A stretch of 64,000 bases of DNA. Source: a virus. The translations under genes and the position numbers were made by a program. Under the pieces are notes generated by a model, which worked only from the letters and a program-made list of their open reading frames with translations, did not search any database and was not told the DNA's origin. Below are positions 29,523 through 50,452 of this stretch, piece after piece (position 1 is the stretch's first letter; every line of letters begins with the position of its first letter). The stretch lies in the IMG/VR virus record IMGVR_UViG_3300037153_000606. One strand, written 5' to 3'.

Positions 29523-29534
29523 GATGCCGCCCAT

Positions 29535-30087
29535 GGCACGGCTTGGCCGGGCATGCCTTGGCGCGGTTTGGTTCGGCAGTCAGGGCGCGGCCTGGCCCGG
29601 CGCGGCTGGTCAAGGCTTGGCCTGGCATGGCAGGCGCGGCAACGGCTAGGCAGGGCTTGGCCGGGTTTGGTCAGGCTTGGCATGGCAGGCAAGGCGGGGC
29701 CCGGTTAGGTACGGCGAGTTAGGGCGGGGCAGGGCACGGCAGTCGCGGCAAGGCTAGTTAGGGTTCGGCCGGGCTTGGCCGGGTTTGTCAGGGCAGTCGT
29801 GGTTCGGCCCGGTTCGGCTAGTCGGGGCCTGGTTGGGCACGGCAGGCATGGTACGGCTTGGCGAGGCATGGCAACGCAAGGCGAGGCGCGGCAGTCGGGG
29901 TTTGGCTTGTCGCGGCCAGGCACGGTCCGTCCCGGCTCGGTAGTCGTGGTGCGGCTGGGTCCGGCAGGGCTAGGTGCGGCGCGGTGCGGCAGCCGTGGTT
30001 GGGCATGGTTCGGCAAGTCCAGGCTAGGCAGGTCGCGGCAGGCAAGGGCAGGGTCTGGCGGGTTAGGGCGCGGTTGGGCGTGGCAGG
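29535..30087 (+). ncRNA. Orphan GGY-NN pentamer guide array (11 units of about 8-10 pentamers)
   Basis: 5-nt period with GGCA(G) phase shifts every 49-55 nt; flanked by TAGAAT and a hairpin; same grammar as the array next to the RAMP-like gene. Confidence 0.8.
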
Positions 30088-30118
30088 GCCCCGGTTCTTC
30101 ACTAAGTGGAACCGGGGC
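30088..30118 (+). terminator. Hairpin closing the orphan array
   Basis: 10-bp stem GCCCCGGTTC / GAACCGGGGC. Confidence 0.6.
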
Positions 30119-46907: not shown

Positions 46908-47738
46908 ATGCCTCGGCCGCCGTCTCCAACGACTTCGAAGACGTGTCAACGTGACGGTTGCGATAACCGATTCGAAGTCACCCAAGCCAAAGCTCAGAGG
47001 GATCGTCGATTTTGTTCGAAAGATTGCTCGAACAAAGCCACCGCGCTAATCCGTGGCGCTTCGTATCGAGCCAGTCATGGGTATAAGCCGCCAGTTTGTC
47101 CATGTGGTCGTTCTATCCAACCGAGACCGGGCCAGCGGTACGTCTATTCGAAGAAATATTGCGACATGGAGTGTCGTGCTCGATTTAGCCCGAGGCGACA
47201 ACCCAATCCTGAAAAGTGGGGTTCATACACGTGTCGCGTGTGTGGCACTGAATTCACCCGCCGGAAGAACTCTCGTAATGCCAAGATCTATTGCAGCCTT
47301 GCGTGTGCCAACAAGGAGACCAAGAAGAAGCATCACATCGTGTTGCGCGATGACGATGTTGTGTTCGACAGTGCCTGGGAGGCGTTCTTTTACGGCGCGT
47401 GCAAGATCGCGAAGATCCCGATCGAACGGTTCGACCGAGATCATGGTGTTGCCTACGACCCAGAATACCTGGATCGGTGGTACGCGCCAGACTTCTGGTT
47501 GCCCGACGTCCAGGCATGGGTCGGTCGCACCGGCGTTGCGATCGAAATCAAAGGTGTTGAAGACGACCGCGACGAAACCCGGTGGACCGCCTTCCGGTCG
47601 ACGGGAGTCGACCTGGTGGTGATGGACCGGTACCGGATGGAGAACCTGTCTGCACACTCGTTGTCCGACATCCTGCGAGTCGCCACGATGAGGGACAATC
47701 CCGCCTTGCCATGCCAAGCCGCGACACGCCTAGCCTAA
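46908..47738 (+). CDS. Free-standing endonuclease with Zn-ribbon repeats and a PD-(D/E)XK-like domain
   Basis: Three CxxC...(F/Y)CxxxC repeats; DSAWE...YAPDFWLPD...IEIKG; lower GC. Confidence 0.7.
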   Translation: MPRPPSPTTSKTCQRDGCDNRFEVTQAKAQRDRRFCSKDCSNKATALIRGASYRASHGYKPPVCPCGRSIQPRPGQRYVYSKKYCDMECRARFSPRRQPNPEKWGSYTCRVCGTEFTRRKNSRNAKIYCSLACANKETKKKHHIVLRDDDVVFDSAWEAFFYGACKIAKIPIERFDRDHGVAYDPEYLDRWYAPDFWLPDVQAWVGRTGVAIEIKGVEDDRDETRWTAFRSTGVDLVVMDRYRMENLSAHSLSDILRVATMRDNPALPCQAATRLA

Positions 47739-49273
47739 CCTTGCCACGCCGAACCAGGACTGCCGCGCCCTGCCAAGGGTTGCCCCGCCCAACCCAACCG
47801 GGCCTCGCCTGGCACGCCGAGACGAACCCGGCCAAGTACCGCCGTGCCATGCCGCACCTTGGCAGCCTCACCGAGCCATGCCGAGCCATGCCCATCCACG
47901 CCGTGCCCTGACCACCATGCCGTGCCTGCCGAGCCACGCCAAGCCTTGACCCGCCCTGACGGGCCGAGCCTTGCCCTGACTGCCGAACCACGCCAAGCCA
48001 CACCAAGACCCGACCTGCCAAGCCGAGCCGTGCCGAGCCATGCCTGCCCCGCCGCACCACGCCGCACCATGCCGCTGCCCTACCGTGCCGCACCCTGCCC
48101 GCCTTGCCCAGCCAAGACGTGCCACTCCAGGCCAAACCCTGCCCGCCTTGCCTCACCTCGCCGTGGCCCGCCCAACCGCACCGAGCCCCGCCAAGCCTGC
48201 GTCGCCCCGCCGTGACCCGTCACGCCGGGCCCAACCAAACCACGCCTGCCCGACCGAGCCCTGCGTTGCCCTGCCTGGACCAACCGCGCCTCGCCTGCCA
48301 TGCCCCACCTGGCCAGACCATGCCCAGCCGTGCCAGCCTGCCAAACCGAGCCCTACCGAGCCGTACCCAGACGAGCCAAGCCACACCGTGCCCGCCCAAC
48401 CGGGCCGCACCGGGACTCGCCGAGCCCTACCTTGCCTGCCTTGCCGAGCCGAGCCTCGCCAAGCATTGCCATGCCCAGCCGTGCCTGCCGAACCGAGCCC
48501 TACCGGGCCGAGCGGTGCCCTGCCTGGCCTAGCCGCGCCGCGACTGCCCTGCCTTGCCTCACCCAGCCTTGCCGAGCCGCACCAAGCCTTGCCGCGCCTG
48601 CCGTACCTCGCCCAGCCGAGCCCGGACGGACCTAGCCCCACCGCACGGTGCCCTGCCGAGCCATGACTGCCCTGCCCTGCCGCACCGAACCGAGACGTGC
48701 CGGACCACCCGGGCCAAGCCACGACTGCCGTGCCACACCCTGCCGACCATGCCCAACCCAGCCATGCCGAGGCTGCCCCGCCGTACCGGACCCGGCCGCA
48801 CCAAACCAAGCCATGCCTGCCGCGACCTGCGATGCCCTGCGGTACCAGGACATGCCGTGCCTGCCGAGCCGGGACCCGCCCCGCCATGACTAGCCATGAC
48901 CGGACTTGCCCCACCGAGCCTGCCCAGCCACGCCTTGCCCAGACTTGCCAGGCCTTGCCGTGCGCTGCCAGCCGAGCCAAGCCTTGGCTGCCTCGCCACG
49001 CCGAGCCCTGCCGAGCCCACCTAGCCTTGCCCTGCCACGGCTGCCCTGACATGACCCGCCGTGCGATGCCGAACCGGGCCGGACCATGCCTGCCTACCAG
49101 GCCACGCCCCGACTCGTCCCGCCTTGCCTTGCCTGCCGGGCCGAGCCTTGACTAGCCATGCCTAGCCACGCCATGCCGAGGCTGCCCAGCCATACTGCGC
49201 CGTGCCGAGACTTGCCCCGCGACGACCCGACATGCCTGCCCGACCTCGCCACGCCCACCTAGCCGTGACTGCC
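47701..49273 (-). ncRNA. Main GGY-NN pentamer guide array (about 30 units, about 300 pentamers)
   Basis: 5-nt periodicity with GGCAG(G/T/C)C unit junctions; directly downstream of and co-oriented with the RAMP-like gene pair. Confidence 0.85.
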
Positions 49274-49282
49274 ACGAAGCGA

Positions 49283-49320
49283 ACCGCCGGGATCATGCCC
49301 CACCACATGATCCCGGCGGT
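49283..49320 (-). promoter_or_regulatory. Perfect 15-bp hairpin leading into the array
   Basis: ACCGCCGGGATCATG-N8-CATGATCCCGGCGGT. Confidence 0.7.
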
Positions 49321-49363: not shown

Positions 49364-49819
49364 TCAGCTCGCCTGATGCTCGCCGTTCAGGTCGTCGAGC
49401 ACCATCCGGGTGAACTCATCCAAGTGACGGTACTGAGCTGCTAGCGCACGCCAGCGCCGTTCCGCCTCCTGCAGGATCAACCTCCGCTTGAGCGGGTCGA
49501 GCGCGATGTCCTCGACCGGTTCATAGTTCGGTTGGTGCGCCGTAGGGCGCGACACCGCGATGTACTTGCGGACCCGTTTCTCCTCGTCCGATGCATCCCG
49601 GTAGACCACCTTCACCGAGGTGATCAGCTTGTGGGCCTGGGTGAGCCGGTGTTTCTCCCCGGCCACCCGGTTGTCCCACTCGAAACGCGAGTACAGCGGG
49701 TGTTTCCTGCCGAGCGACTGGACGTCGGCCAACACCGCCCGAGGAGTCAGCTCGCCCTGTCGTTGGCGAACCTCCTCAAGCTGGCGAGCCAACTCCTCGT
49801 GAGCGGTGAAGGCGGTCAT
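49364..49819 (-). CDS. Accessory protein of the RAMP-like/GGY-NN locus
   Basis: LTPxxV...HPLYSRFEWD...RLTQAHKLI; starts 3 nt after the RAMP-like stop. Confidence 0.75.
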   Translation of the reverse strand: MTAFTAHEELARQLEEVRQRQGELTPRAVLADVQSLGRKHPLYSRFEWDNRVAGEKHRLTQAHKLITSVKVVYRDASDEEKRVRKYIAVSRPTAHQPNYEPVEDIALDPLKRRLILQEAERRWRALAAQYRHLDEFTRMVLDDLNGEHQAS

Positions 49820-49822
49820 GGC

Positions 49823-50452
49823 TTAGTTGATGACCGTGATCTCGCGGGCCTGGTCGATCTCGAACGTCCCGTACTCGCCGTTCTTCTCCGGACGCCACTC
49901 ACCGACACCGACGGTGAGACCGGCGGCGGAGATGATCGAGAGCACCGAGTCGCGGGTGATCGCGGACTTGACGTACTGCACGGTCAGCTCGGAGGTCCAG
50001 TCCGGGAACTCGGCGCGGTAGCGCAGGTCGGTGCCACTGATGCCAACCGTCACCATGTCCTCGCGCATCTTCGGCTCGCCGACGATCGGGAAGAGCGCCT
50101 GGTTGCAGTGTTCGCTCATCACGCCACGGAAGAACAGGAACTGGCGCAGCTCGGTCATCCGGACCGACTTGCCGTACAGCCGGGCGGCGGACACCGTCGC
50201 GGCCTTGAACGCGACGGACGGGAAGCCGTAGCCGTCGGCGGTGCGGTACAGCGAGGACTCGAACTCGGCCTCGGGGTCGCGGGGTTCCTTGATGGTCTTG
50301 CGGCCCTGCTGGGTGTCCAGCATCTGGCGCTTGGCCTTCTCCGACCAGTTGTGCACGATCAGCGGCATGGTGCCGACGACCGGCACGAGCAACGTCTCGA
50401 CGTCGATCTTGGTGATGTCCAGTTGGGCTGGAGCGGCGGCTGCTGCGGGCAT
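49823..50452 (-). CDS. Stand-alone RAMP/Cas7-like protein (209 aa)
   Basis: GTMPLIVH, FPSVAFKAATVSAA (compare RAMP IPGSSLKG), C-terminal Gly-rich loop GVGEWRPEKNGEYGTF; RBS AGGAGG. Confidence 0.75.
   Translation of the reverse strand: MPAAAAAPAQLDITKIDVETLLVPVVGTMPLIVHNWSEKAKRQMLDTQQGRKTIKEPRDPEAEFESSLYRTADGYGFPSVAFKAATVSAARLYGKSVRMTELRQFLFFRGVMSEHCNQALFPIVGEPKMREDMVTVGISGTDLRYRAEFPDWTSELTVQYVKSAITRDSVLSIISAAGLTVGVGEWRPEKNGEYGTFEIDQAREITVIN

Follow-up and report, generated by a model that had tools for sequence, protein, structure and literature searches.

The DNA described here is a 64,000-nucleotide stretch (the window) of the viral record IMGVR_UViG_3300037153_000606 from IMG/VR, in which positions 47701-49273 very likely form the main array of guide RNAs (vrRNAs) of a Viral Interference Programmable Repeat (VIPR) system that reads its targets while skipping the wobble base of each codon. 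VIPR is a phage system for RNA-guided gene silencing, described in preprints in 2026 (bioRxiv 10.64898/2026.04.26.720920). Its components, as given in the text of that preprint, are Vipr, a RAMP protein of about 20 kDa, vrRNAs built from GGY and NN (YNNGG pentamers, 9-16 repeats per guide) and an accessory gene, vap. The "1 nt skip rule" was demonstrated by pangenome searches, by binding assays and by repression of GFP, and the alignment of the skipped bases to the wobble position was rationalized as a block to synonymous escape (bioRxiv 10.64898/2026.04.26.720920, text). A sequence-only reading of the window had proposed that the NN dinucleotides of this array decode as protein-coding sequence with the wobble base left out. 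That inference is supported, and it is the published VIPR rule, rederived from raw sequence. Given that the gapped, wobble-skipping code was already published in 2026, the window confirms the code rather than discovering it.

The array, referred to as array 1, runs as a near-continuous series of NN(G/A)CC pentamers on the plus strand, and thus as GGY-NN on the minus strand, with a periodicity of 5 nt only. It holds about 320 GGY-NN repeats in about 1.57 kb, and lies beside the vipr gene and on the same strand. A dynamic-programming parse of 47701-49273 yields 281 five-letter NN[G/A]CC tokens, 39 four-letter tokens and 2 six-letter tokens, reproducing the repeat structure that the sequence-only reading had divided into about 30 units. 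The parse gives 24 units delimited by GGCA|G, with estimates of about 24-30 overall; the units are mostly 8-13 repeats long, and about 27 guides of at least 8 NN result once long runs are split at other four-mers.

The phase of array 1 is reset about every 50 nt by the four-mer TGCC (GGCA on the minus strand). At all 23 junctions GGCA is followed by a G, which opens GGC in 14 cases, GTC in 5, GCC in 3 and GGT in 1. Because G always follows GGCA, each junction can be described as a GGCAG repeat whose final G is also the first letter of the following G(G/T/C)C repeat. Neighbouring guides overlap by 1 nt at these 23 junctions and at 8 junctions of a second array in the window, with no tail between them, which is the architecture of the staggered VIPR type.

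A protein-coding role for array 1 was rejected, given that no open reading frame (ORF) spans it and the frame shifts at every junction. It was also rejected as part of a CRISPR-Cas locus, given that it is not organized as repeats and spacers and that the neighbouring genes are those for an endolysin, a capsid protein and an endonuclease. Direct repeats of 25-40 nt are absent from array 1. A search of the whole window against Rfam returned no family and no ribozyme, and a scan for promoters and terminators was uninformative. A perfect 15-bp hairpin can be read from the sequence at 49283-49320 (minus strand), in the interval that separates the accessory gene from the first repeat of array 1.

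All six peptides that had been decoded by hand from the NN were reproduced at the positions given for them, and the two "2-nt spacers" noted within them proved to be the four-mers ACCC and GACC. These four-letter repeats (GG-NN without the Y on the minus strand) lie inside guides at 48707-48710 and 48745-48748. The strand asymmetry of the NN was recovered as well, with GA at 36 against TC at 13, CT at 23 against AG at 6, and CA at 18 against TG at 7; the hand counts had been 37/13, 26/6 and 21/3. The composition of the NN was then scored in six phases against models derived from the window's own genes. The best fit is to codon positions 1-2 in sense (-3.99 bits per NN), followed by the antisense wobble-skipping phase (-4.19), and fits are worse for the four phases in which the wobble base is counted (-4.36 to -4.94).

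Two guides can be assigned targets by exact matches. The first, of 11 NN, lies at 48490-48544 (minus strand) and spells (D/E)(D/E)LG(D/E)VL(W/C)YAA, the signature motif of MazG-like nucleotide pyrophosphohydrolases. IMG/VR contains 38 exact matches to its NNx pattern, and GTDB contigs, with one genome per species, contain 19. Every one of the 57 is in frame and in sense, reading (D/E)ELGDVLWYAA in genes for MazG-like pyrophosphohydrolases. The MazG gene of Gordonia phage JSwag, a phage selected by MazG protein homology, matches the guide at 9 of 11 NN when the gap is 1 nt and at 6 of 11 when it is 0, 2 or 3 nt, and the maximum among shuffles is 7; no other guide matched phage JSwag. The NN string of the guide is identical in genes of several phyla and in many viral contigs, such that a single guide could cover many rivals.

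The second guide, at 48672-48725 (minus strand), also has 11 NN, with one 4-nt repeat inside, and spells LLA(D/E)(D/E)VGTG(K/N)T, which is motif I (Walker A) of SNF2-type helicases. It has 4 exact matches in IMG/VR, each of them in frame in a phage helicase gene and reading LLAD(E/D)VGTGKT, and a control with its dinucleotides in reversed order has none there. At a gap of 1 nt, the helicase guide matches phages Commandaria and Zany at 8 of 11 NN and Hawkeye at 7 of 11, compared with 4-6 of 11 at other gaps, or 5-6 in Commandaria and Zany. Because the guide matches the motif exactly across a four-letter repeat, the shortened scaffold triplet leaves the register intact. The helicase family is found in 268 actinophage records, 109 of which are from Gordonia phages. 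The targets verified in this way are conserved catalytic motifs in genes that rival actinophages commonly have, namely the MazG-like pyrophosphohydrolase and motif I of the SNF2-type helicase.

The claim that the decoded peptides are real motifs therefore stands for EELGDVLWYAA and LLADEVGTGKT, whereas VTLEIHHID, RDLFLCHAS and ALKLPHHGS found no target in a matching family and KELDVHENTV, for which no motif had been named, found none in a local 836-kb phage set. For VTLEIHHID, with an HNH-like reading, the single exact match in IMG/VR is in frame but reads VTLEIQQMD, lies on a contig of 38% GC and is not in an HNH gene. RDLFLCHAS, with a TIR-like reading, has two exact matches in IMG/VR, both outside any ORF and chance-like, and ALKLPHHGS, with a reading like that of the MBL family, has none. 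A patatin-like unit of the second array has no exact match in IMG/VR and none with up to three mismatches in 151 sampled genomes, and the unit at 48866-48920 has no exact match in IMG/VR or in metagenome contigs. The HNH-, MBL-, TIR- and patatin-like labels are unverified, candidate readings, and the first three rest on ambiguous letters that were resolved toward known motifs.

These searches also provide a calibration. The 9-NN units gave 1, 0 and 2 exact matches, so that about one chance match is expected per 9-NN pattern and about 0.004 per 11-NN pattern. Two other 11-NN guides gave no exact match, from which it follows that patterns of this length do not match by chance. The MazG and helicase matches are far beyond chance.

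The same figures bear on a sceptical explanation, in which the peptides are over-fitted and the NN say nothing about targets, the array being either a degenerate pentanucleotide satellite or a scaffold for protein binding. Three of the six quoted peptides are at the chance level and none of these has a match in the proposed family, the two 11-NN units taken without bias have no matches, and pairs such as D/E and H/Q were resolved by hand, as the sequence-only reading itself admits. Yet the 38 and 4 matches in IMG/VR, all in frame at the signature motif of a family, compare with an expectation of about 0.004; the NN composition singles out the wobble-skipping phases; and a Vipr homologue adjoins the array. 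The code was, moreover, demonstrated experimentally for a related system, according to the text of the first preprint (bioRxiv 10.64898/2026.04.26.720920). Over-fitting is already largely refuted, and it would be surprising in the extreme if it accounted for the array.

The gap and shuffle controls were extended to a local set of 836 kb, comprising 11 phages and the window with arrays masked, against which 52 guides from five arrays were compared. Guides that match at least 80% of their NN number 1, 5, 1 and 1 at gaps of 0, 1, 2 and 3 nt, respectively, and two of the five matches at the 1-nt gap are present by construction. Shuffled guides reached the same threshold in 13 of 1040 trials. One of the unbiased matches is that of a guide from Gordonia phage Ecliptus, QLEQIIWM, which matches at 8 of 8 NN and in frame in a gene for an 887-amino-acid protein of Gordonia phage RedWattleHog. 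KELDVHENTV, searched only in this set, has no match of at least 80% of NN. A match at 8 of 9 NN between a guide of the second array and a viral contig (G307) is out of frame and was taken as chance. With the arrays masked, no guide matches the 64-kb window itself at 80% of NN or more at the 1-nt gap, and none rises above the level of shuffled guides, arguing against self-targeting. Across the searches, exact or near-exact matches to coding motifs were obtained for three guides, in frame and only at the 1-nt gap, in agreement with the proposal that targets take the form NNxNNx with the wobble base skipped.

The identity of the system is also given by the neighbouring gene. The vipr gene, at 49823-50452 on the minus strand, has its ATG at 50452 preceded by AGGAGG and encodes a RAMP/Cas7-like protein of 209 amino acids. 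The C-terminal 60 residues of the product match the PDB entry 36pp_D, "SUSP1 Vipr protein", by phmmer (E=1.5e-5), and 4736 homologues of the product were found. An AF2 model (pLDDT 84.5) has Cas7, Csm3 and Cmr4 as top Foldseek matches, with probability 1.0. Because the product matches the Vipr of phage SUSP1 and folds like Cas7, the locus can be assigned as a VIPR system with a staggered vrRNA array. A candidate vipr-accessory gene (vap) of 151 amino acids follows at 49364-49819 (minus strand), starting 3 nt after the vipr stop codon and matching phrog_15946. Its product has no match in Pfam or among PDB sequences and no significant fold match; the model (pLDDT 70) finds only weak winged-helix-like folds, with E values of 0.4 or worse.

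Homologous loci occur in isolated phages. The vipr homologues of two Gordonia phages, Ecliptus and UmaThurman, and of Mycobacterium phage Donkeykong adjoin GGY-NN arrays, with 29-35 phased GGY pairs per 200 nt where the background is about 1. In all three phages a gene for 140-151 amino acids lies just downstream of the vipr homologue and its array, and resembles the candidate vap in size and position. Two genes annotated in GenBank for a "hypothetical protein", UmaThurman gene 40 (L004 5625-5948) and Donkeykong gene 48 (L005 4480-4866), coincide with GGY-NN arrays, and these are probably mis-annotated vrRNA arrays. One unit of the Donkeykong array (L005 4640-4720) is internally duplicated, as five NN, one NN and the same five NN.

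A mechanism can be proposed by extension from SUSP1. From the orientation of the genes, the minus strand would be transcribed, probably together with vipr and the 151-amino-acid accessory gene, into a run of GGY-NN pentamers. As in SUSP1, copies of Vipr would polymerize along the guide, hold each GGY triplet and present the NN, which would pair with double-stranded target DNA such that every third target base is skipped; by the same analogy, binding would silence transcription. Guides abut directly, with the terminal GGCAG of one lending its last G to the first repeat of the next. As the matches of the window's guides show, the skipped base is the wobble position of the codon, so that a guide in effect recognizes an amino acid motif and synonymous mutations give no escape. 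Cryo-electron microscopy has shown that the Vipr filament holds GGY, presents NN and forms an R-loop triplex (10.64898/2026.04.26.720927). The text of the first preprint further reports targets in rival phages and satellites, bound as double-stranded DNA on either strand (10.64898/2026.04.26.720920).

Several points weigh against the assignment of array 1 as a wobble-skipping VIPR array. The 57 MazG matches are mutually homologous, and therefore count as one independent event. Targets are identified for few guides, and exact scans of six tested units gave no convincing match. The excess at the 1-nt gap in the unbiased part of the local set is modest, at 3 matches against about 0.65 expected. 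The candidate vap could be assigned by family or fold to none of the published vap classes, and staggered arrays are described in the text of the first preprint as unconfirmed by small-RNA sequencing (10.64898/2026.04.26.720920). In one soil metatranscriptome, two contigs of 151 nt fall on vipr and none on the array, with carry-over of DNA possible.

A second vrRNA array (array 2) lies at 29533-30086 on the plus strand and was recognized by a periodicity scan and by reading. It has about 0.55 kb of GGY-NN repeats in 9 units delimited by GGCA|G, or about 10 guides of at least 8 NN after splitting, and follows the junction rule of array 1, with GGCA followed by G at 8 of 8 junctions. A hairpin at about 30086-30120 closes it. 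Array 2 comes after tail-fibre-like genes that have Laminin_G_3 and collagen domains. With about 18 kb between it and vipr, it amounts to a remote or orphan vrRNA array within the same genome. Combined, the two arrays of the window hold about 37 guides. Directly downstream of array 2 is an ORF of 1383 amino acids with a NUDIX domain (30526-34677, plus strand).

Guides had been expected to be complementary to the sense strand, and this is borne out in both arrays. A mixture model based on composition gives maximum-likelihood estimates of 0.92-0.96 (array 1) and 0.97-0.99 (array 2) for the proportion of coding-sense units. The corresponding values are about 1.0 in the arrays of Ecliptus and UmaThurman and only 0.3 in that of Donkeykong, which lacks the coding-sense bias of the Gordonia phage arrays. 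All four verified targets, for three guides of the window and one of Ecliptus, are in sense and in frame. Nearly all guides of arrays 1 and 2 are antisense to coding strands, which is possibly a new observation.

Complementarity to the coding strand would be explained if the guides of the staggered clade acted as antisense RNAs on mRNA rather than on double-stranded DNA. The sense fractions and the four sense targets fit such a role, and the targets published for type II systems, in the text available, are on both strands (bioRxiv 10.64898/2026.04.26.720920). The existing biochemistry and structures, however, show binding to double-stranded DNA and an R-loop triplex (10.64898/2026.04.26.720920, in its text, and 10.64898/2026.04.26.720927), and a strand bias could equally result from a transcriptional roadblock that is stronger on one strand, or from the way in which the guides originate. 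The Donkeykong array has no such bias, and the test of orientation is one of composition. An antisense action on mRNA is therefore quite improbable, and binding to double-stranded DNA is the preferred description for array 1.

One guide that the sequence-only reading had not picked suggests a different kind of target. The guide at 48603-48667 (minus strand) has 13 NN and spells VS(H/Q)(D/E)RGYPAVL(D/E)(I/M), and its nearest targets are ThiF/E1 genes in multiubiquitin operons. When 301 genomes, taken as a sample of the GTDB order to which a Saccharopolyspora genome belongs, were searched with up to three mismatches, the guide gave 2 matches with 2 base mismatches each, and the backward control gave none. 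Both are in frame, reading ASHERGYPALLDI, within genes with a ThiF/E1 domain, and at both loci a Multiubiquitin gene adjoins the target. One locus also has genes for HmaA (an SNF2 helicase, E=0) and HmaB (a methylase), and the other has genes for a Mutator transposase and an IrrE-like peptidase. The ThiF/E1 genes at the two loci (L070 2527-11022; L071 8806-11401) contain a JAMM-like HxH...S..D stretch, and their contexts resemble defence islands. Exact matches to the E1 guide were found neither in the sampled GTDB-derived genomes nor in metagenome contigs, and none of the other guides matches the 20-kb regions around the two loci. One guide may therefore target a host defence gene, a possibly new use for which the evidence, from sequence matches, is thin, the more so as the other readings suggestive of defence failed.

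On this basis the system could serve counter-defence rather than competition between phages, with guides that silence host immunity genes, for instance operons for ubiquitin-like E1/JAB proteins and the SNF2 helicases of DISARM, Hma or BREX type systems. The near-match of the E1 guide to ThiF/E1 genes beside Multiubiquitin, with HmaA and HmaB at one locus, points in this direction, and an anti-defence use is absent from the text of the VIPR preprints 10.64898/2026.04.26.720920 and 10.64898/2026.10.15.759431. Against it, there is no exact E1 target in the collections searched, and viral contigs have far more exact helicase and MazG matches per base than genomes do. The helicase family belongs to actinophages, the helicase guide does not match the HmaA gene beside the E1 target, and the patatin-like unit is without a match in the sampled genomes. 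The multiubiquitin operons may themselves be on mobile elements. Counter-defence as the alternative to phage-phage competition is thus unlikely, if less so than an antisense action on mRNA. With similarly low confidence, the near-uniform antisense orientation of guides in the clade and the aim of at least one guide at a ThiF/E1 gene of a defence island might together mean that staggered-array systems work strand-specifically and serve in part as an RNA-guided counter-defence, in which host immunity is silenced by way of conserved protein motifs, besides being a weapon between phages. The weapon against rival phages remains the preferred function of the array.

The carrier of the array is a soil actinophage of about 150 kb, with a capsid gene that resembles those of large Gordonia phages. 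An ORF for 276 amino acids at 46908-47738 (plus strand) converges on array 1, and its final 38 nt or so overlap the array. The ORF is low in GC (about 53-57%) and matches phage HNH-endonuclease and Holliday-junction-resolvase-like PHROG families. The related phage RedWattleHog has a resolvase gene at the same position but lacks the VIPR cassette, which therefore looks inserted.

The locus can be compared most closely with the published staggered VIPR type. The text of the first preprint distinguishes seven VIPR types, including "staggered arrays" with 1-nt overlaps (legend to fig. S18), and six vap classes (10.64898/2026.04.26.720920). Like the staggered systems of fig. S18, as far as they are described there, the window has a lone small RAMP gene, an adjacent small accessory gene, long GGY-NN arrays borne by a phage, a 1-nt overlap between guides and a 1-nt skip aligned to the wobble position. 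Unlike them, it has two arrays, of 1.57 kb beside vipr and of 0.55 kb at a distance of about 18 kb, and nearly all of their roughly 37 guides are antisense to the coding strand. The text of that preprint does not name the locus (10.64898/2026.04.26.720920).

With the type II systems of Escherichia phage SUSP1 and a Pseudomonas fulva prophage, the locus shares a homologous Vipr, the GGY/NN code, guides of 9-16 repeats and targets in rival mobile elements. In SUSP1 each vrRNA is an RNA of its own, about 100 nt long and ending in a structured 3' tail, whereas the guides of the window lack tails and are joined by GGCAG junctions only. The target of SUSP1 is a satellite, hit on both strands, whereas the verified targets of the window are universal enzyme motifs on the coding strand. 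A later preprint describes a guide on the active-site codons of a recombinase (10.64898/2026.10.15.759431). The guides of the window resemble this guide, SUSP1 vrRNA4, which is directed at the recombinase of a satellite (10.64898/2026.10.15.759431), in being aligned to the wobble position over codons of a catalytic core, where non-synonymous escape would damage the enzyme. The SUSP1 guide acts against one satellite family, whereas the MazG guide matches several phyla and many viral contigs, suggesting a very broad reach.

Likenesses to Class 1 CRISPR-Cas are confined to the Cas7 backbones of Cascade, Csm and Cmr, with which Vipr shares the RAMP fold, oligomerization along a guide RNA and periodic positions that do not pair. 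In VIPR two of every five guide bases pair, compared with five of six in Class 1 CRISPR-Cas. Unlike those systems, the locus has no CRISPR repeats or spacers and no cas1 or cas2, and its guides are hard-wired rather than acquired.

In short, the locus is a large natural example of the staggered VIPR type, with about 37 hard-wired guides in two arrays. Its carrier is related to cultivable Gordonia phages, and laboratory tests of the system are feasible because Ecliptus, UmaThurman and Donkeykong, which have been isolated, contain homologous loci. The text of the preprints does not contain three of the observations: guides directed at universal catalytic motifs, those of MazG and the helicase Walker A, a strong bias to the coding strand, and a near-match to a gene of a defence island. 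They make the target range of these phage systems, their strand rules and their possible anti-defence use concretely testable.

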